Assembly (NCBI RefSeq): GCF_050920415.1 | Contig: NZ_CP169309.1 | Source of the DNA: Escherichia coli | GTDB taxonomy: Bacteria; Pseudomonadota; Gammaproteobacteria; Enterobacterales; Enterobacteriaceae | Strand: one strand, 5' to 3' | DNA: 64,000 nt | In this document: one piece after another, positions 7,369-20,754 of the stretch | Numbering within the stretch: position 1 is the stretch's first letter | Layout of the letters: the number at the start of each line of letters is the position of its first letter | Made by a program: the position numbers and the translations under genes | Notes under the pieces: model-generated | Told to the model about the DNA's origin: nothing | The model's input: only the letters and a program-made list of their open reading frames with translations | Databases searched by the model: none

Positions 7369-9129
7369 TTGACCATTACGAAACTTGCATGGCGTGACCT
7401 GGTTCCTGATACCGATAGCTATCAGGAAATATATGCTCAGCCACATTTGATTGACGAAAACGATCCTATATTCAGTGATACTCAACCGCGACTGCAATTT
7501 GCGCTGGAGCAGTTGCTGCATACGCGAGCATCCTCCTCTTTTATGCTGGCGAAGGCCCCGGAAGAGTCTGAGTATCTGAATCTTATTGCCGATGCCGCGC
7601 GTGCGCTACAAAGCGATGCAGGCCAACTGGTGGGCGGTCACTATGAGGTTTCCGGCCACACCATCCGCTTACGTAACGCAGTGAGTGCAGATGATAATTT
7701 TGCGACTTTAACGCAAGTTGTCACTGCCGACTGGGTAGAAGCGGAACAACTCTTTGGCTGCCTGCGCCAGTTTAATGGTGACATTACCCTGCAGCCAGGT
7801 CTGGTGCATCAGGCAAATGGCGGTATTCTCATCATCTCTTTGCGTACACTGCTGGCGCAACCTCTGCTGTGGATGCGGCTGAAAAATATCGTTAACCGCG
7901 AGCGTTTTGACTGGGTTGCGTTTGACGAGTCGCGCCCTCTCCCCGTCTCTGTGCCTTCGATGCCATTGAAGCTGAAAGTCATTCTGGTAGGCGAACGCGA
8001 ATCATTAGCTGATTTCCAGGAGATGGAGCCAGAGCTTGCTGAGCAGGCTATTTATAGCGAATTTGAAGATACTCTGCAGATTGTCGATGCGGAGTCAGTA
8101 AACCAGTGGTGTCGTTGGGTGACATTTACCGCCAGACATAACCACTTACCTGCACCGGGAGCGGATGCCTGGCCGGTACTTATTCGCGAAGCCGCACGCT
8201 ACACCGGTGAACAAGAAACACTGCCGCTTAGCCCGCAGTGGATCCTCCGCCAGTGTAAAGAGGTCGCCTCACTGTGTGATGGCGACACCTTCTCCGGCGA
8301 GCAGCTAAACTTAATGTTACAGCAGCGTGAATGGCGCGAAGGTTTCCTCGCTGAACGCATGCAGGATGAGATCCTTCAGGAGCAAATCCTGATTGAAACC
8401 GAAGGCGAACGCATCGGGCAAATTAACGCCCTTTCGGTCATTGAATTTCCGGGTCATCCGCGCGCTTTTGGCGAACCTTCTCGCATTAGCTGCGTTGTAC
8501 ATATTGGCGATGGTGAATTCACTGACATCGAACGCAAAGCGGAGCTTGGCGGCAATATCCATGCGAAAGGGATGATGATCATGCAGGCGTTCCTGATGTC
8601 GGAACTTCAGCTTGAGCAACAGATCCCCTTCTCAGCATCGCTGACATTTGAGCAGTCATATAGCGAAGTGGATGGCGATAGTGCCTCAATGGCTGAACTC
8701 TGCGCCCTGATAAGCGCCCTCGCCGATGTGCCGGTGAATCAGAGTATTGCTATCACAGGTTCAGTCGATCAATTCGGTCGCGCCCAGCCAGTCGGTGGTT
8801 TAAATGAGAAAATCGAAGGCTTCTTTGCTATTTGCCAGCAACGTGAGTTAACGGGGAAACAAGGTGTCATTATCCCCACTGCTAACGTTCGCCATTTAAG
8901 TCTTCACAGTGAACTGGTGAAAGCAGTAGAGGAAGGCAAATTCACCATCTGGGCAGTAGACGATGTGACTGAAGCACTGCCGTTATTATTAAATCTGGTG
9001 TGGGATGGCGAAGGCCAAACGACGCTGATGCAAACCATCCAGGAACGTATCGCGCAAGCATCGCAACAGGAAGGACGTCACCGTTTTCCATGGCCATTAC
9101 GTTGGCTGAACTGGTTTATTCCGAACTGA
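7369..9129 (+). CDS. ycbZ: Lon-like protease homolog YcbZ
   Basis: 586-aa ORF with TTG start; C-terminal DGDSAS (Ser codon 8680-8682) resembles the Lon catalytic-Ser motif; no GxxxxGK[ST] P-loop seen by eye. Confidence 0.8.
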
Positions 9130-12413: not shown

Positions 12414-13667
12414 TCAGGACTCCTCATGCTCTGATTCAGGTTGACGATCCCACGACAAACGCGGGTCAAACGTCATCGCAGAAAACATTGTCATTATGAC
12501 GACTAAAGCAAACATTAATGCACCCATTGCTGGATAAATACTCATTAAACCTCCCATACGCACCAGCGCCGAGAGCACCGCGATGACGAAAACGTCAATC
12601 ATTGACCAGCGGCCTACAAACTCTACAACTTCGTAAATCAAATGCATTCTTTCACTGTCGCGCTTGCCATGCCCTTTGGCATCCCAGCACAGCCAGCCAA
12701 TCGCAATCATCTTTAACGTTGGCACCATAATACTGGCCAGGAAGATAACCGCAGCGACGGGATAAGAGCCTTCACTCCATAATAAGATGACACCAGCAAG
12801 AATCGTCGACGGCATTTTCGAGCCTAATAAATCCGTCACCATGATGGGCAAAATATTCGCCGGGAGATACAGCATGATGGACGTAACAAGCAGTGCGAGT
12901 GTCCATTGCAGGCTGTTTCTACGTCGAACGTATCCTTTCGTGCCACAGCGTGGGCACACTGGATCACCAGCTGGAAGAATTGCCGTGCAACAGGAGCACG
13001 AACGCAGCCCCTGACGTATCCCCGTGACGCCCGGTTTTAGCGGCTGACGCAATTCTGGCATTGGGGCGATATCGTCCCATAACCAGCGACGATCAACGCA
13101 CTGAAAGGCGCGCAGTTGCAGGACACAAAATAAACACCATGGGAGAAAGCTGCTGCCTACACCAATGCTGCCGTAGGCCATCAGTTTAACGAAACTCACC
13201 AGCACACCGGCGAGGAAAATCTCCGCCATTCCCCATGTTTTGAGTTGAAAAAGCACCCGTGCCAGTTGCTCTTTTAAACGGACCGGTAATTGTGCGCGAT
13301 TAACCAGTAACAGAATAGTTATCAGGCAAAAAGCGGGAACCAGTTGCACAAACAACAGGAAAAAGGTGCCGAGGCTGGCGTAGTCCTCAGAAAAAAGCAC
13401 GCTGGGAATTTCCAGTAATGTAATTTCACTGGTGACTCCTGCAACGTTCATTTTCACAAAAGGAAACAAGTTGGACAGCAACAGCATGAACAGTGCAGCC
13501 AACGCATAGGCGGTGGGACGCTGCCGAGGGGCATCCCACGCCACGGTTAACGTTGTGCCACACCGGGGACATGCCGCTTTCTGACCATGCTCAAGGCGCG
13601 GTAACGCCACCAGCATGTCACACTGCGAGCACAGGATGTGCTTCGCGGCATGATGATGTTCGCACAT
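12414..13667 (-). CDS. pqiA: paraquat-inducible inner membrane protein PqiA
   Basis: 417 aa with paired CxxC zinc-ribbon-like motifs and hydrophobic segments. Confidence 0.9.
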   Translation of the reverse strand: MCEHHHAAKHILCSQCDMLVALPRLEHGQKAACPRCGTTLTVAWDAPRQRPTAYALAALFMLLLSNLFPFVKMNVAGVTSEITLLEIPSVLFSEDYASLGTFFLLFVQLVPAFCLITILLLVNRAQLPVRLKEQLARVLFQLKTWGMAEIFLAGVLVSFVKLMAYGSIGVGSSFLPWCLFCVLQLRAFQCVDRRWLWDDIAPMPELRQPLKPGVTGIRQGLRSCSCCTAILPAGDPVCPRCGTKGYVRRRNSLQWTLALLVTSIMLYLPANILPIMVTDLLGSKMPSTILAGVILLWSEGSYPVAAVIFLASIMVPTLKMIAIGWLCWDAKGHGKRDSERMHLIYEVVEFVGRWSMIDVFVIAVLSALVRMGGLMSIYPAMGALMFALVVIMTMFSAMTFDPRLSWDRQPESEHEES

Positions 13668-13796
13668 TGGTACTCCTTAATGATGCGCTATTATACAGAT
13701 TGCTAACAAAGCGCTGGTTTTCGTGCCAGATAAACGTTACACATCTGGCAATTTTACCGTTGTCAGCAGCCTCTGTTTAAATCGACTATTTTGCGA

Positions 13797-15704
13797 TCAG
13801 CCACCATTTTTTAACGCTTCAAGATACTCCCAGCGTTCAAAGGCTTGCTCCAGCTCCTGCTCCGCAGCAGCCATATCAGCGAGCACTTTTTGCGTCTGCT
13901 CATGCGGCTGACTAAAGAAGGCAGCATCCGCCACCTGCGTCTGTAGGGCTTCCAGCTTCGCCTCCAGCTCTTCGAGCAATTGCGGCAGTTGCTCCAATTC
14001 GCGCTGCAATTTATAGCTTAGTTTGCTACTGCTGCGTTTTACAGTTTCTGCTTTTGGCGCGGCGGCTTCTTCGGTTTTTTTCACCGCAGGCTGTTTAAGC
14101 GCCACATACTGTTCTTGCTGACCACGGGCATCATGATAACCGCCGACATAACGACCAATTTTACCGCCGCCTTCGAAGATCCAGCATTCTGTAACCGTGT
14201 TATCGACAAACTGACGATCGTGGCTCACCAGCAATACCGTGCCCTGGTAGCTGTCGATCAGTTCTTCCAGCAATTCCAGCGTTTCGACATCAAGGTCGTT
14301 GGTCGGTTCGTCAAGAATCAATAAGTTGCTTGGTTTGAGGAACAAACGCGCCAACAACAAGCGGTTACGCTCACCGCCAGATAGCGCACGTACCGGCGTC
14401 ATCGCCCGTTTCGGATGGAACAGGAAGTCCTGCAAATAACCCAGTACATGGCGTGGTTTGCCATTTACCATCACCTCTTGTTTGCCTTCGGCCAGGTTAT
14501 CCATCACCGTTTTATCGGGATCCAGTTCCGCGCGGTGCTGATCGAAATAAGCCACTTCCAGTTTGGTACCGACGTGAATACGTCCGCTATCTGGTTGAAG
14601 TTGATCTAGCATCAGTTTCAGCAGCGTGGTTTTGCCGCAGCCGTTCGGACCAATCAAGGCAATTTTGTCGCCACGTTGAACCTGGGCAGAAAAATCTTTC
14701 ACCAGTTGCTTACCGTCAACCTGGTAGCAAACGTCTTCCATTTCGAAAACGATCTTACCGGAGCGGCTGGCCTCTTCCACCTGCATCTTCGCCGTCCCCA
14801 TGACCTCACGGCGCTGGCTACGTTCACGGCGCATTGCTTTCAGGGCGCGTACGCGGCCTTCATTACGGGTACGGCGCGCTTTGATCCCCTGGCGGATCCA
14901 CACCTCTTCCTGCGCCAGTTTGCGATCGAACTCGGCATTTTGTAGTTCTTCCACGCGCAGGGCTTCTTCTTTTTCCAGCAGGTACTGGTCGTAATTGCCA
15001 GGATAGGTCACCAGCTTGCCGCGATCGAGATCGACAATGCGCGTCGCCATATTGCGGATAAACGAACGGTCGTGGGAGATGAAAATAATCGTCCCATTGA
15101 AGGTTTTGAGGAACCCTTCCAGCCAGTCGATGGTTTCGATATCCAGGTGGTTGGTGGGTTCATCAAGCAACAGCACGCGCGGATTACTCACCAGCGCACG
15201 TCCCAACGCCGCTTTACGCAGCCAGCCGCCGGAAAGCGATGACAGCGCAACGTTAGGATCTAACCCCAGCTGTGCCAGCACTTCGTTAATGCGGTTTTCC
15301 AGCTGCCACAGGTTGTGGTGATCCAACTGTTCCTGAACCTTCGCCAGTTCGTTGAGATTTTTCTCGCTCGGGTCGTTCATCACCAGGCGCGAAATATCGT
15401 GATAGCGTTTCAGGTATTCCGCTTGTTCTTCAATGCCTTCGGCAACGAAATCATAAACGCTACCCTCAACGTTACGCGGCGGATCCTGTTGCAGACGAGC
15501 GACAATCAAATCTTGCTCGTAAATAATGCGACCGTCATCCAGCCCTTGTTCACGGTTGAGGATTTTCATTAACGTCGATTTGCCTGCGCCGTTACGGCCT
15601 ACCAGACAAACACGTTCGTTATCTTCGATATGCAGTTCTGCGTTATCGAGAAGCGGCGCGTCGCTGAACGACAGCCATGCGCCATGCATACTGATTAATG
15701 ACAT
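13797..15704 (-). CDS. uup: ABC-F family ATPase Uup
   Basis: 635 aa with two Walker A motifs (GRNGAGKST, GPNGCGKTT) and two LSGG signatures, no transmembrane segments. Confidence 0.95.
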   Translation of the reverse strand: MSLISMHGAWLSFSDAPLLDNAELHIEDNERVCLVGRNGAGKSTLMKILNREQGLDDGRIIYEQDLIVARLQQDPPRNVEGSVYDFVAEGIEEQAEYLKRYHDISRLVMNDPSEKNLNELAKVQEQLDHHNLWQLENRINEVLAQLGLDPNVALSSLSGGWLRKAALGRALVSNPRVLLLDEPTNHLDIETIDWLEGFLKTFNGTIIFISHDRSFIRNMATRIVDLDRGKLVTYPGNYDQYLLEKEEALRVEELQNAEFDRKLAQEEVWIRQGIKARRTRNEGRVRALKAMRRERSQRREVMGTAKMQVEEASRSGKIVFEMEDVCYQVDGKQLVKDFSAQVQRGDKIALIGPNGCGKTTLLKLMLDQLQPDSGRIHVGTKLEVAYFDQHRAELDPDKTVMDNLAEGKQEVMVNGKPRHVLGYLQDFLFHPKRAMTPVRALSGGERNRLLLARLFLKPSNLLILDEPTNDLDVETLELLEELIDSYQGTVLLVSHDRQFVDNTVTECWIFEGGGKIGRYVGGYHDARGQQEQYVALKQPAVKKTEEAAAPKAETVKRSSSKLSYKLQRELEQLPQLLEELEAKLEALQTQVADAAFFSQPHEQTQKVLADMAAAEQELEQAFERWEYLEALKNGG

Positions 15705-15715
15705 TACTATTCCTT

Positions 15716-17824
15716 TCAGGCTGCGGTAATCAGCCAGCAGTTGTGGATCTGGCGGTTACGGGCGAAATCCTGGGAGAGCGTTTTTTGCGTAATTTCTTGT
15801 GCTTTCAGCCCCAGTTTTGCCAGTCCGTCAAGATCCATTCGGAAGCCACGTTTGTTGTTCGAGAACATGATCGTCCCACCAGCACGCAGCAGACGTTTCA
15901 AATCTTTCATCAGCGCCAGATGATCGCGCTGAACATCAAACGCATCTTCCATTCGTTTTGAGTTAGAGAAGGTTGGCGGATCGATAAAGATCAGATCGAA
16001 CTGTTCATTTGCCTCACGCAGCCACGCCAGGCAATCGGCCTGAATCAGGCGATGCGCACGCCCGGTTAGGCCATTCAGACGCAGGTTGCGTTCTGCCCAC
16101 TCCAGATAAGTACGCGACATATCCACGGTGGTAGTGCTGCGTGCACCGCCTAATCCCGCGTGCACGGTGGCGCTCCCGGTATAAGAGAACAGGTTGAGGA
16201 AATCTTTGCCTTTGCTCATCTGACCGAGCATACGACGGGCGATACGGTGATCGAGGAACAGACCGGTATCGAGGTAATCCGTCAGGTTCACCCACAAGTG
16301 AGCGTTATATTCGGTGACTTCGAGAAACTCGCCCTTCTCGCCCAGTTTCTGGTACTGATTTTTGCCCTTCTGGCGTTCACGGGTTTTCAGCACCAGTTTG
16401 TTTGGCGCAATCCCCAGTACAGAAATGGTTGCAGCGATAATATCGAACAGACGCTGACGCGCTTTGTGCGCATCAATCGTTTTTGGCGGTGCATACTCCT
16501 GCACCACCACCCAGTCGGCATAACGGTCAACGGCAACGTTATACTCCGGCAGATCGGCATCATACAGGCGATAACATTCAATCCCTTCCTGACGTGCCCA
16601 CTTCTCGAATTTTTTGAGGTTCTTACGCAGGCGGTTGGCGTAGTCTTCCGCTACCATTGCCGGTTTGCTGTCTGGTGTGCTTTCGGCAACGTGATAATTT
16701 TTCTGTACGCAGTCCAGCGGGCCGTTTTTCGCCTTGTACTGTTTGTCTGCACGCAGCTGCAGGCAGCTTAGCAGATCCGGCGAGGCACTAAACAAAGAGA
16801 GATTCCAGCCACCGAACTGGTTTTTCATGATTCGGCCCAGCAGGCTATGCAGTGCAATCAGCGCCGGTTCGCTGTCCAGACGTTCACCGTATGGCGGGTT
16901 GCTCAACACTGTACCGTACGGCCCTTTCGGCAGCGGATTGGTCAGTTGCGCAACATCTTTCACCTCAAAGGTAATCAGTTCACCAATCCCCGCAAGACGT
17001 GCGTTAGTGCGCGCACGTTGAATCACCCGGGCGTCGCTGTCCGAACCGTAAAAATGAGAGCTATACTCTGCCAGTCCTTTACGGGCGCGAGCTTGCGCTT
17101 CCGCTTTCACTTCCTGCCAGATAGCTTCATCATGCTGCGCCCAGCCGCTAAAGCCCCAACGCCCACGGTGCAAGCCTGGTGCGCGATCGGTCGCCAGCAT
17201 CGCCGCTTCAATCAGCAACGTACCAGAACCACACATTGGATCGAGCAGCGGTGTTCCCGGCTGCCAGCCGGATCGCATCACAATCGCGGCTGCCAGTGTT
17301 TCTTTGATCGGCGCAATACCAGCACGATCGCGATAGCCACGCAGATGTAAACCATCACCACTGAGATCAAGGGCGATACTGGCAGTTTCTTTATGCAGCC
17401 AGACGTTAACGCGGATATCCGGCGCATCGCGATCAACATTTGGACGCGGCAAATTTTTCCGCGTGAAAGCATCGACGATCGCGTCTTTCACTTTCATCGC
17501 GCCGTACTGGCTGTTGCGAATGGTGTCATTTAAACCACTGAAATGGACAGCGAAGGTCGCGCCAGGATTAAACATCTCTGTCCAGTTGATCGCCTGAACG
17601 CCGAGATAGAGGTCTAAATCACTGTAAACCTTACACTCGCCCAGCGGCAACATAATACGCGAGGCCAGGCGGCTCCACATCAGGCTCTGGTAAACAAGCC
17701 GTGTGTCGCCCTTAAAATGGACCCCACCCTGAACCACCTGGCATTCAACGGCCCCCAGGTTTTCCAGTTCAGTTTTTAACAGCTCTTCCAGCCCACGGGC
17801 CGTACTGGCAAACAGAGAATTCAT
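15716..17824 (-). CDS. rlmL: bifunctional 23S rRNA methyltransferase RlmKL (m2G2445/m7G2069)
   Basis: 702-aa ORF recognised as RlmL (YcbY); stop lies 11 bp upstream of the uup start. Confidence 0.9.
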
Positions 17825-17921
17825 ATCGTCACTTTTACTCTAAGAAAATTGTTGCGCATTATAGCTAATAAGCGCGTCATGTCATAAAGTTGAGGGCTTA
17901 TTTTCATTTGAGGACCGCACC

Positions 17922-19031
17922 GTGGCGACATTAACCCGGCTTTTTATTCATCCTGTTAAATCGATGCGCGGCATTGGTCTTACACATGCTCTGGCAGATG
18001 TCAGTGGTCTGGCCTTCGATCGCATCTTTATGATCACGGAACTTGACGGTACGTTTATTACCGCTCGCCAGTTTCCCCAGATGGTACGGTTTACTCCTTC
18101 ACCTGTGCATGATGGCTTGCATCTCACCGCACCAGATGGCAGTAGCGCATATGTTCGTTTTGCTGATTTCGCCACACAAGACGCACCAACCGAAGTTTGG
18201 GGCACACATTTTACCGCGCGAATTGCGCCAGACTCGATCAACAAATGGTTAAGTGGATTTTTCTCCCGCGAAGTGCAATTGCGCTGGGTGGGGCCACAAA
18301 TGACCCGGCGCGTGAAACGCCACAACACTGTACCTCTGTCATTTGCTGATGGCTATCCTTACCTTCTTGCTAACGAAGCCTCGTTACGTGATCTCCAACA
18401 ACGTTGTCCGGCCAGTGTAAAAATGGAGCAATTCCGCCCCAATCTGGTGGTTTCCGGCGCGTCAGCCTGGGAAGAAGATAGCTGGAAAGTGATTCGTATT
18501 GGTGATGTGGTGTTTGATGTGGTTAAACCTTGTAGCCGCTGTATTTTCACCACCGTCAGTCCAGAAAAAGGGCAAAAACATCCGGCAGGCGAACCATTAA
18601 AAACATTGCAATCTTTCCGTACTGCCCAGGATAACGGCGATGTCGATTTTGGTCAGAATTTAATTGCCCGTAATAGCGGCGTGATTCGCGTTGGCGATGA
18701 GGTGGAAATTCTGGCAACGGCTCCGGCTAAAATTTACGGCGCAGCTGCCGCTGATGATACCGTCAACATCACGCAACAACCGGACGCAAATGTAGATATT
18801 GACTGGCAGGGACTGGCATTTCGTGGAAATAACCAACAGGTGCTGCTGGAGCAATTAGAAAATCAGGGAATTCGTATCCCTTATTCTTGCCGCGCGGGCA
18901 TTTGTGGAAGCTGCCGTGTTCAGCTTTTAGAAGGCGAAGTCACACCGCTCAAAAAATCAGCAATCAGCAATGATGGCACCATTCTTTGCTGTAGTTGTGT
19001 GCCGAAGACTGCGCTTAAACTAGCGCGTTAA
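17922..19031 (+). CDS. ycbX: MOSC-domain 2Fe-2S protein YcbX
   Basis: 369 aa with GTG start; C-terminal CRAGICGSC...C ferredoxin-like cysteine motif. Confidence 0.9.
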
Positions 19032-19743: not shown

Positions 19744-20754
19744 TTAGATATGGTTAACGATTTCTTTAATCAGCGGCGGTCCTTTAAAAATAAAACCAGA
19801 ATAAATTTGCACCAGTGAGGCCCCCGCAGCAATCTTTTCACGCGCAGCGATAACCGAGTCAATGCCGCCAACACCGATGATCGGTAAGCGACCGTTTAAT
19901 TCCTGAGACAAACGGCGAATAATTTCGGTGCTTTTTAACTGTAGCGGACGACCACTTAAGCCCCCAGTTTGATCGCAATTTTTCATACCCTGTACCAAAG
20001 AACGATCGAGCGTGGTATTGGTTGCAATAACGCCATCAATATTATGGCGAACTAAACTATCGGCAACCTGGATCAATTCTTCTTCAGAAAGATCCGGCGC
20101 GATCTTCACTGCGATCGGCACATATTTATGGTGCATCGCTTGCAAATCATTTTGCTTATTTTTAATCGCGGTTAAGAGATCATCCAGCGCTTCGCCATAT
20201 TGCAGTGTGCGTAGTCCTGGGGTATTCGGCGATGAAATATTGATGGCGATATATCCCGCATAAGCATAGATTTTTTCCATACAAATCAGATAGTCATCTT
20301 TACCCTGCTCCACCGGCGTATCTTTATTTTTGCCGATGTTAATACCCAGGACGCCATCATAATGGGCTTTTTTTACGTTCTCTACGAGGTTATCAACGCC
20401 AAGATTATTAAAGCCCATACGGTTGATCAAACCTTCGGCATCTACCAGACGAAAGAGACGCGGCTTGTCATTACCTGGCTGTGGACGTGGCGTGACGGTA
20501 CCGATCTCGATAGATCCAAACCCCATCGCGCCTAACGCGTCAATGCACTCCCCGTCTTTATCAAGACCGGCTGCCAGACCAAGCGGATTTTTAAACGTCA
20601 GGCCCATGCAGTTAACAGGTTTCGCAGGCACTTTCTGCCGCACCAGTGCTTCAAACGGCGTTCCTGTAATACGGCGTAATTGCTGAAAAGTAAACTCATG
20701 AGCGCGCTCTGGATCGAGCTGGAAAAGGGCTTTACGAACGAAGGGGTAGTACAT
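19744..20754 (-). CDS. pyrD: dihydroorotate dehydrogenase (quinone)
   Basis: 336 aa from [21 protein letters not shown]... Confidence 0.95.

Follow-up and report, generated by a model that had tools for sequence, protein, structure and literature searches.

The rlmKL-uup junction of Escherichia coli: anatomy, conservation and bearing on translational coupling

Genes and junction anatomy

The window analysed here is a 64,000-nt stretch of Escherichia coli chromosomal DNA (contig NZ_CP169309.1) in which rlmKL (rlmL) and uup lie next to each other on the minus strand. Gene coordinates were obtained from the open reading frame (ORF) listing and from the RefSeq annotation of an identical E. coli record. 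Both products were identified over their full lengths, RlmKL by a match to the equivalog NF008748 (1124.9 bits, cutoff 466) and Uup by a match to the NCBIfam equivalog NF050005 (1138.6 bits, cutoff 900), with a further match of Uup to NF008358 at 1260 bits. The features of the two genes and of their junction are as follows:

15716..17824, minus strand: rlmKL coding sequence, bifunctional 23S rRNA m7G2069/m2G2445 methyltransferase, 702 aa (ORF, NF008748, RefSeq)
13797..15704, minus strand: uup coding sequence for the ribosome-associated ABC-F ATPase Uup, 635 aa (ORF, NF050005, NF008358, RefSeq)
15718..15716, minus strand: rlmKL stop codon TGA (sequence)
15715..15705, minus strand: 11-nt intercistronic spacer AAGGAATAGTA (sequence)
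15711..15715, minus strand: Shine-Dalgarno (SD) core AAGGA of uup, its first base directly after the TGA and its last base 6 nt before the ATG
15709..15707, minus strand: additional stop TAG in the rlmKL frame (sequence)
15706..15704, minus strand: additional stop TAA in the rlmKL frame, sharing bases with the uup start as TAATG
15704..15702, minus strand: uup start codon ATG (sequence, ORF listing, RefSeq annotation)

Read on the minus strand, the junction runs GCA GCC TGA AAGGAATAGTA ATG TCA TTA, i.e., the end of rlmKL, the spacer, and the start of uup. The original prediction had described an rlmL stop, an SD, and a uup start 11 nt apart, and this description is exact in the minus-strand sequence, the ORFs, and the annotation of the identical record. 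The duplex of AAGGA with the 16S anti-SD, spaced 6 nt from the uup ATG, has an energy of − 5.6 kcal/mol, a value near the middle of the range for 39 genes of the window. The cost of opening the uup ribosome-binding site (RBS) is likewise mid-rank (17th of the 39). By both duplex energy and conservation, then, the uup SD is neither weak nor absent, the trait that is typical of obligate coupling. A 151-nt segment spanning the junction shows 100% identity to K-12, so that results from K-12 can be applied to it directly.

Operon context and conservation

The 11-nt gap between these adjacent, same-strand genes offers no space for a terminator plus a promoter, and a sequence scan of the minus strand found no terminator-like or promoter-like site at the junction. 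A consensus scan of the minus strand within rlmKL likewise returned no sigma-70-like site at the scan threshold, while upstream of the gene it returned a candidate for the operon promoter:

17885..17858, minus strand: promoter-like site ATGACA-16-TATAAT, 5′ of rlmKL (consensus scan, 11 of 12 matches)

Reddy and Gowrishankar are said to have mapped, in work from 2000, a promoter 5′ of ycbY by primer extension, and ycbY insertions were reportedly polar on uup. The rlmL-uup operon is stated as such in 10.1101/2023.06.11.543863, and Table S3 of Huber et al. 2023 (PMC10666635) lists b0949 with an 11-nt gap to b0948 in the transcription unit rlmL-uup of EcoCyc-derived tables, flagged ‘CMPLX not’ (products without a known complex). 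In K-12, mRNA levels are 173.8 for rlmL and 174.2 for uup, and each gene has a Gini_mRNA of about 0.30, below the cutoff of 0.45 that the authors used for ORFs with intragenic promoters; ribosome densities are 190.5 and 144.6 and translation efficiencies 1.10 and 0.83, respectively (PMC5318159 supplement). At equal mRNA levels, the uup/rlmL ratio of ribosome density is thus 0.76. Taken together, the literature and the equal K-12 mRNA abundances identify rlmKL and uup as one transcription unit; the operon is already known and its junction already catalogued. The original prediction had further called the two genes a functionally coherent pair, which agrees with the methylation of 23S rRNA by RlmKL and with the suppression of the 50S assembly defect of a bipA deletion by Uup overexpression (PMC6723617).

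A homologous-protein search reached no further than relatives of at least 89% identity, and distant relatives were found through a representative search and contig look-ups. In 79 of 80 Enterobacteriaceae species, uup begins 1–15 nt downstream of rlmKL. The gap is + 12 nt in 62 species and + 1 to + 6 nt in eight, the SD of these short-gap lineages being situated within the rlmKL coding sequence. Among the 79 species, the rlmKL stop is TGA in 69, and AAGGA is kept in 73 at 6–8 nt from the uup ATG; in some E. coli, a 1-nt deletion has turned the stop into TAA. The position of the stop varies from + 1 to + 15 nt relative to the uup start, while the module of SD and ATG stays conserved. Of 24 distinct TGA-type junctions, 23 carry an in-frame backup stop, whereas shuffled sequences gave 7.2 ± 2.2. 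Further afield, uup lies downstream of rlmKL in seven of eight distant relatives sampled and is absent from that position in the eighth. Where RlmKL is 49–64% identical, the gap is − 1, 0, or + 5 nt; in two distant relatives a glutaredoxin-like gene of 77–78 aa separates rlmKL from uup, and in others the gap is + 19 or + 68 nt. The Uup N-terminus MSLIS is kept as far as relatives with a 42% identical RlmKL.

Initiation of uup translation

That the stop abuts the SD had been taken in the original prediction to indicate translational coupling, an inference that fails: gaps of 11 nt that contain an SD form a common class in E. coli. Within the window, the gap is at most 11 nt in 13 of the 27 same-strand neighbour pairs and exactly 11 nt in three (rlmKL/uup, elfG/ycbU, and ssuD/ssuC); across the E. 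coli genome, 203 pairs at + 9 to + 12 nt make up 7% of unidirectional pairs (Huber et al. 2023, PMC10666635). The junction pattern is real, yet it is no more than the operon background would give.

The spacing of + 11 nt also falls outside the most efficient coupling range (− 4 to + 3 nt) and within a wider range, up to about + 25/+ 40 nt, in which coupling is reduced or context-dependent. At + 13/+ 14 nt, published coupling lies anywhere between intact and abolished according to context, and reinitiation efficiency drops with distance; some synthetic studies have found coupling undiminished from − 4 to + 25 nt. Authors who measured this distance dependence deem independent initiation likely where a gap of 11 nt holds an SD. 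Overlapping pairs, moreover, vary in relative translation as much as non-overlapping pairs do, and depletion of RRF left the ratios of downstream to upstream ribosomes unchanged, genome-wide as well as for five coupled reporters. This result speaks against a major part for re-initiation in E. coli coupling; Saito et al. favoured structure melting as the general mechanism. Our literature search found no experiment on the rlmKL-uup junction and no paper containing both ‘uup’ and ‘translational coupling’.

Folding of the region around the uup start predicted one local stem:

15727..15739, minus strand: predicted 5′ arm (UGC..GGCUGAUUA, rlmKL codons C-W-L-I-T) of the − 9.3 kcal/mol stem
15685..15697, minus strand: predicted 3′ arm (UAAUCAGU..GCA, uup codons 3–7)

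The stem (8 + 3 bp) encloses the stop, the SD, and the AUG, leaving the SD and the AUG themselves unpaired. Across 78 distinct sequences, the stem can pair in 96% of cells; all five measures of covariation equalled their shuffle means, and only one compensatory cell was seen; the RNAalifold covariation term was − 0.53. Conservation of the stem is explained by its arms, both of which consist of constrained codons (W-L-I-T and S-L-I-S-M-H). The overall fold around the junction is not unusual (z = − 0.48), and the predicted pairing partners of the uup start region shift with the length of the folded context. When the upstream ORF was held open, the predicted cost of opening the uup RBS decreased from 11.2 to 6.7 kcal/mol, i.e., by 4.5 kcal/mol, a relief that ranks fourth among 17 operon-internal genes. 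At 0.437, the in vivo DMS Gini for the start region of uup exceeds that of rlmL (0.347; PMC5318159 supplement), a hint that this region is structured and may have to be opened by upstream ribosomes. No Rfam match at E ≤ 1 was found in 13400..18300.

A long-range sequestration of the uup start was considered separately and rejected. In contexts of 400–600 nt, the best pairing site within rlmKL for the SD, the AUG, and positions + 9 to + 18 was 15862..15888, at − 24.3 kcal/mol, and the best sites in unrelated mRNAs reached − 20.7 to − 21.9 kcal/mol. The orthologous segment had a median of − 12.6 kcal/mol against a median of − 18.4 for the best site anywhere, was top-ranked in only two of 79 species, and scored − 11.1 in another E. 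coli. Because it is strain-specific, this strong pairing is probably due to chance.

Given how common the gap class is, how variable published coupling has been, and that no covariation-supported structure sequestering the RBS was found around this start, coupling is permitted by the anatomy of the junction and not more than that; partial coupling of uup to rlmKL is plausible. We consider it likely that this is a standard intercistronic junction in a known, constitutively expressed two-gene operon, with uup initiated at its own SD and partial coupling probable. The mode of uup initiation and any degree of coupling we infer as follows. A promoter 5′ of rlmKL would give rise to a single mRNA carrying both genes, and uup would be initiated at its own moderate SD, AAGGA, inside the 11-nt gap. 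A ribosome stopped at a UGA covers roughly the next 12–13 nt in standard toeprint geometry. By that geometry, a ribosome at the rlmKL UGA would cover the whole SD up to the uup AUG, and ribosomes completing rlmKL would melt the 5′ arm of the − 9.3 kcal/mol stem, the 3′ arm of which is formed by uup codons 3–7. With the SD covered and the stem arm melted in this manner, translation of rlmKL would probably aid uup initiation somewhat without being required for it, i.e., the two would be partially coupled. The near-equal output of RlmKL and Uup would then stem mainly from shared transcription and similar initiation strengths.

Three observations count against this explanation. The similar ribosome densities of rlmL and uup would suit full coupling equally well. 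In 79 Enterobacteriaceae, stop and start are never more than 15 nt apart, and in several distant relatives they overlap or abut; such persistent closeness could reflect selection for coupling. The third is the DMS Gini, which is higher at the uup start than in rlmL.

The foremost alternative, which we regard as possible though rather unlikely, is that coupling acts mainly through RNA unfolding, the uup start being structured with the rlmKL 3′ end and opened only by translation of the last codons. The enclosing, widely pairable local stem, the lower predicted opening cost with the upstream ORF open, the higher DMS Gini at the uup start, and the general mechanism favoured by Saito et al. all speak for it. 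Against these stand the shuffle-level covariation of a stem built from constrained codons, the ordinary overall fold with partners that depend on context length, the strain specificity of the strongest partner (15862..15888), and the unpaired state of the SD and the AUG within the stem.

Tight coupling by termination-reinitiation, in which the terminating ribosome or its 30S subunit is retained and captured by the adjacent SD such that Uup synthesis is slaved to that of RlmKL, seems to us unlikely. It would accommodate the 11 nt between stop and start, the SD beginning at the base after the stop, a terminating-ribosome footprint that by toeprint geometry would extend to the AUG, the density ratio of 0.76 on equal mRNA, the short distances in all 79 Enterobacteriaceae and at − 1, 0, and + 5 nt in distant relatives, and the synthetic constructs that lost no coupling up to + 25 nt. 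It is opposed by the drop of reinitiation efficiency with distance and its context-dependent, sometimes abolished state at + 13/+ 14 nt, by the ribosome ratios unchanged under RRF depletion, and by the equally variable relative translation of overlapping and non-overlapping pairs; furthermore, the SD of uup makes a handed-over ribosome unnecessary, and the stop is not fixed relative to the uup start.

We think it quite improbable that the tight junction has been selected to hold the RlmKL:Uup production ratio fixed, with both proteins acting together on 50S precursors and uup translation substantially coupled to that of rlmKL. In line with such a reading are the gap of at most 15 nt in all 79 Enterobacteriaceae that have the pair, the overlapping or abutting genes of distant relatives, and an in-frame backup stop kept despite sequence turnover.

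Expression of uup largely from its own promoter in the 3′ part of rlmKL, which would render the tight junction irrelevant to expression, is very improbable in view of the equal mRNA levels, the Gini_mRNA below the cutoff, the absence of a sigma-70-like site from the minus strand of rlmKL at the scan threshold, the rlmL-uup transcription unit of the EcoCyc-derived tables, and the reported polarity of ycbY insertions. In PMC12083536, E. coli operons in general are described as often having internal promoters.

Were uup translation to depend on rlmKL, then rlmKL deletions or nonsense alleles would also reduce Uup, and some of what is ascribed to missing m7G2069/m2G2445 methylation could in part be a phenotype of Uup; a preprint from the Boel group (10.1101/2023.06.11.543863) raises the converse concern of uup deletions affecting rlmL. 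That the two genes have stayed together so widely strengthens the case for a role of Uup in 50S biogenesis or translation. As one of about 200 similar junctions in E. coli, this one reveals nothing new about coupling, and its significance is modest.

Comparison with known junctions

The junction fits the class of unidirectional pairs at + 9 to + 12 nt, which share a 9–12-nt distance, a polycistronic transcript, and room for an SD; rlmL-uup is itself an entry in the class of Huber et al., with its SD within the 11-nt gap of a polycistronic message, and does not differ from it. In the same window, ssuD-ssuC (30678/30690, plus strand) shares the 11-nt gap and an AAGGA SD that overlaps or abuts the stop; it differs in comprising sulfonate utilisation genes and in its stop, which is TAA whereas that of rlmKL is TGA. 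Other Gammaproteobacteria have rlmKL-uup junctions like that of E. coli, with uup directly 3′ of rlmKL at a tight junction, and some distant relatives depart from it through the glutaredoxin-like insert, the + 19/+ 68 gaps, or the lack of a downstream uup. With the classical coupled pairs (trpB-trpA, rplK-rplA, rpmI-rplT, and prfA-prmC), rlmKL-uup has in common a single operon, a close stop and start, and related products. Those pairs are mostly − 4/− 1 overlaps, whereas rlmKL and uup are separated by 11 nt with a competent SD outside the upstream ORF, and the start of uup, unlike theirs, is without a covariation-supported sequestering structure.

Architecture and conservation of the rlmKL-uup junction

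The junction lies in a region of the E. coli chromosome that is 100% identical in NZ_CP169399.1, where it is annotated rlmKL and uup,. Of 5426 complete E. coli genomes, 5425 contain the region and one had no match; four of the 5427 matches were on plasmid-labelled records. The two genes are as follows:

15716..17824, minus strand: rlmKL (also rlmL or ycbY), a 702-aa ORF ending in TGA; NCBIfam equivalog NF008748, 1125 bits
13797..15704, minus strand: uup, a 635-aa ORF opened by ATG; NCBIfam equivalog NF050005, 1139 bits

The minus strand from 15718 to 15702 reads TGA AAGGAATAGTA ATG, in which bases 1-5 of the 11-nt spacer form the Shine-Dalgarno (SD) core AAGGA, ending 6 nt from the uup ATG; the stop, SD, and start geometry of the original prediction was exact. 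Over the 151 nt spanning the junction, K-12 derivatives and most other E. coli have the same sequence as the window, so that K-12 data are applicable to it.

A search with RlmKL, using one genome per species, yielded 80 Enterobacteriaceae loci, in 79 of which uup directly follows rlmKL, the last contig ending too early to judge; none of the 79 species has an overlap. Most species (62) have a 12-nt gap; in the others it measures 11 nt (eight species), 15 nt (one), or 1-6 nt (eight). AAGGA is found 6-8 nt from the ATG in 73 of the 79. The position of the stop varies, with TGA at +11, +12, or +15, TAA at +11, and, in the short-gap lineages, TAA or TAG at +1 to +6 with the SD within rlmKL. Because the stop moves while AAGGA and ATG stay, the conserved unit is the SD plus ATG and not the stop-start distance. 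E. coli is itself polymorphic: in O104:H4 FWSEC0009 and PSS-15, a 1-nt deletion changes GCC TGA AAGG to GCC TAA AGG, so that the stop becomes TAA and the gap shrinks to 10 nt, the SD being unaltered. Several Klebsiella RlmKL proteins (P0012, P0033, P0042, P0060) are named "2-phospho-D-glycerate hydrolyase" by one public source, which looks like a propagated misannotation.

Beyond the TGA, the rlmKL frame continues AAG GAA TAG TAA (15704..15718, minus strand), and its last stop runs into the uup start codon as TAATG. Of the 24 distinct TGA-type junctions of the Enterobacteriaceae, 23 have a TAA or TAG in the rlmKL frame ahead of the ATG, at differing positions, against 7.2 ± 2.2 expected from spacer shuffles, a statistic that ignores phylogeny; the other two frames hold stops in 1 and 6 of the 24. 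Since the majority 12-nt gap places rlmKL and uup in one reading frame, such stops would block a fusion protein from UGA read-through.

Diverse RlmKL representatives (42-64% identity) led to eight contigs of more distant relatives. Here uup is immediately downstream of rlmKL in five, at -1 (TAATG), 0, +5, +19, or +68 nt, follows a 77-78 aa glutaredoxin-like gene in two, and is absent downstream in one. The intervening gene (PF05768; 5602..5838 in contig L089 and 5612..5845 in L090, where RlmKL is 45-46% identical) is joined at +1/+2 nt and then by a -4/-1 overlap. The pair is old and usually tightly packed, in agreement with earlier neighbourhood analyses. Such packing is a weak argument for coupling, since a lost first stop meets the in-frame stops of an A/T-rich spacer and a wider gap needs an insertion. 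In contig L084 (RlmKL 64% identical), pqiA begins only 11 nt after uup (7541..7553); the E. coli gap is 129 nt (window 13668..13796), with a promoter-like site at 13779..13751 on the minus strand and no terminator-like hairpin, and on these grounds the ancestral unit may have been rlmKL-uup-pqiABC.

Transcription and RNA structure

An independent uup promoter is unlikely on several grounds, the first being a near-consensus site upstream of rlmKL:

17885..17858, minus strand: promoter-like site ATGACA-16-TATAAT

A consensus scan of the minus strand within rlmKL found no comparable site. Reddy and Gowrishankar, in J Bacteriol in 2000, reportedly mapped a promoter upstream of ycbY and found ycbY insertions to be polar on uup. 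The remaining grounds are that mRNA abundance in K-12 is equal (173.8 for rlmL and 174.2 for uup), that Gini_mRNA is about 0.30 for both, below the 0.45 threshold that marks ORFs with an intragenic promoter (Burkhardt et al. 2017, PMC5318159), and that the genes are co-transcribed according to an ABCF comparison preprint (10.1101/2023.06.11.543863). Ribosome density is 190.5 for rlmL vs 144.6 for uup, and translation efficiency 1.10 vs 0.83 (Burkhardt et al. 2017, PMC5318159); the value for rlmKL is the higher although uup has the better SD, that of rlmKL being very weak (best duplex -2.4 kcal/mol, 12 nt from ATG; 17825..17850, minus strand). GATC density is 9.0/kb in rlmKL and 7.9/kb in uup (13797..17824) and 11.9/kb in pyrD (19744..20754), about twice the window mean of 4.8/kb, which agrees with pyrD-rlmL-uup being a published stable SeqA-binding locus (PMC2912659).

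The local fold at the junction is unremarkable (z = -0.48), and no Rfam family matched the region. Its most persistent element is a predicted 8+3 bp stem (-9.3 kcal/mol) between 15727..15739 (rlmKL codons C-W-L-I-T) and 15685..15697 (uup codons 3-7), enclosing the stop, SD, and AUG. Among 78 distinct sequences the stem is pairable in 96% of cells, and every covariation measure equalled the shuffle mean, with only one compensatory cell. Because both arms are constrained codons, this conservation would by itself say nothing about selection for pairing. When the upstream ORF was forced single-stranded, the predicted opening cost of the uup ribosome-binding site fell from 11.2 to 6.7 kcal/mol, ranking 4th of 17 operon-internal genes of the window, and the in vivo DMS Gini is 0.437 in the uup start region vs 0.347 in rlmL (Burkhardt et al. 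2017, PMC5318159). A modest unfolding-type contribution to uup initiation is plausible, but the sequence comparison does not support it.

In longer contexts the uup start region (15683..15715) pairs with 15862..15888 on the minus strand (-24.3 kcal/mol). As a means of start sequestration this duplex was treated as chance, since it is specific to this strain's allele (GUGCUGGUGGGAC) and is lost in orthologues, even within Escherichia.

Translational coupling and comparison with known junctions

The original prediction read the junction as translational coupling of a functionally coherent pair. The coherence is reasonable, as RlmKL modifies 23S rRNA and the 50S assembly defect of a bipA deletion is suppressed by Uup overexpression (PMC6723617). 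Obligate coupling is not indicated. In published work reinitiation efficiency falls with distance, being gene-pair-dependent at +14 nt and reduced by 80-100% at +38 nt, and older studies differ, from coupling undiminished out to +25 nt to coupling abolished at +13 nt. RRF depletion left coupled reporters unchanged, as it did the ratios between neighbouring genes across the genome (Saito et al. 2020), and relative translation varies as much in overlapping as in non-overlapping pairs (Burkhardt et al. 2017, PMC5318159). Our literature search found no discussion of coupling at uup. Most likely ribosomes initiate uup on the common transcript through the gene's own SD; some facilitation is likely, because ribosomes finishing rlmKL would, by standard footprint geometry, cover the SD at termination and would melt the predicted local stem.

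The junction is a real sequence feature of a typical operon-internal type. The uup SD duplex (-5.6 kcal/mol) is of middle strength among the window's 39 genes, and the predicted opening cost of its ribosome-binding region ranks 17th of 39. E. coli gene pairs show a small peak at +10/11 nt, and the +9 to +12 class comprises 203 pairs, polycistronic in 194 of 201 and likely initiated independently (Huber et al. 2023, PMC10666635). The supplement of that study lists rlmL-uup at 11 nt, in transcription unit rlmL-uup and not as a known complex. The junction is an ordinary boundary between two genes of a known operon and has already been tabulated. The window has 27 pairs of same-strand neighbours, of which 13 have gaps of at most 11 nt and three have exactly 11 nt, including ssuD/ssuC, where, as at rlmKL/uup, the downstream gene's own AAGGA accompanies the 11-nt gap, there overlapping the stop.
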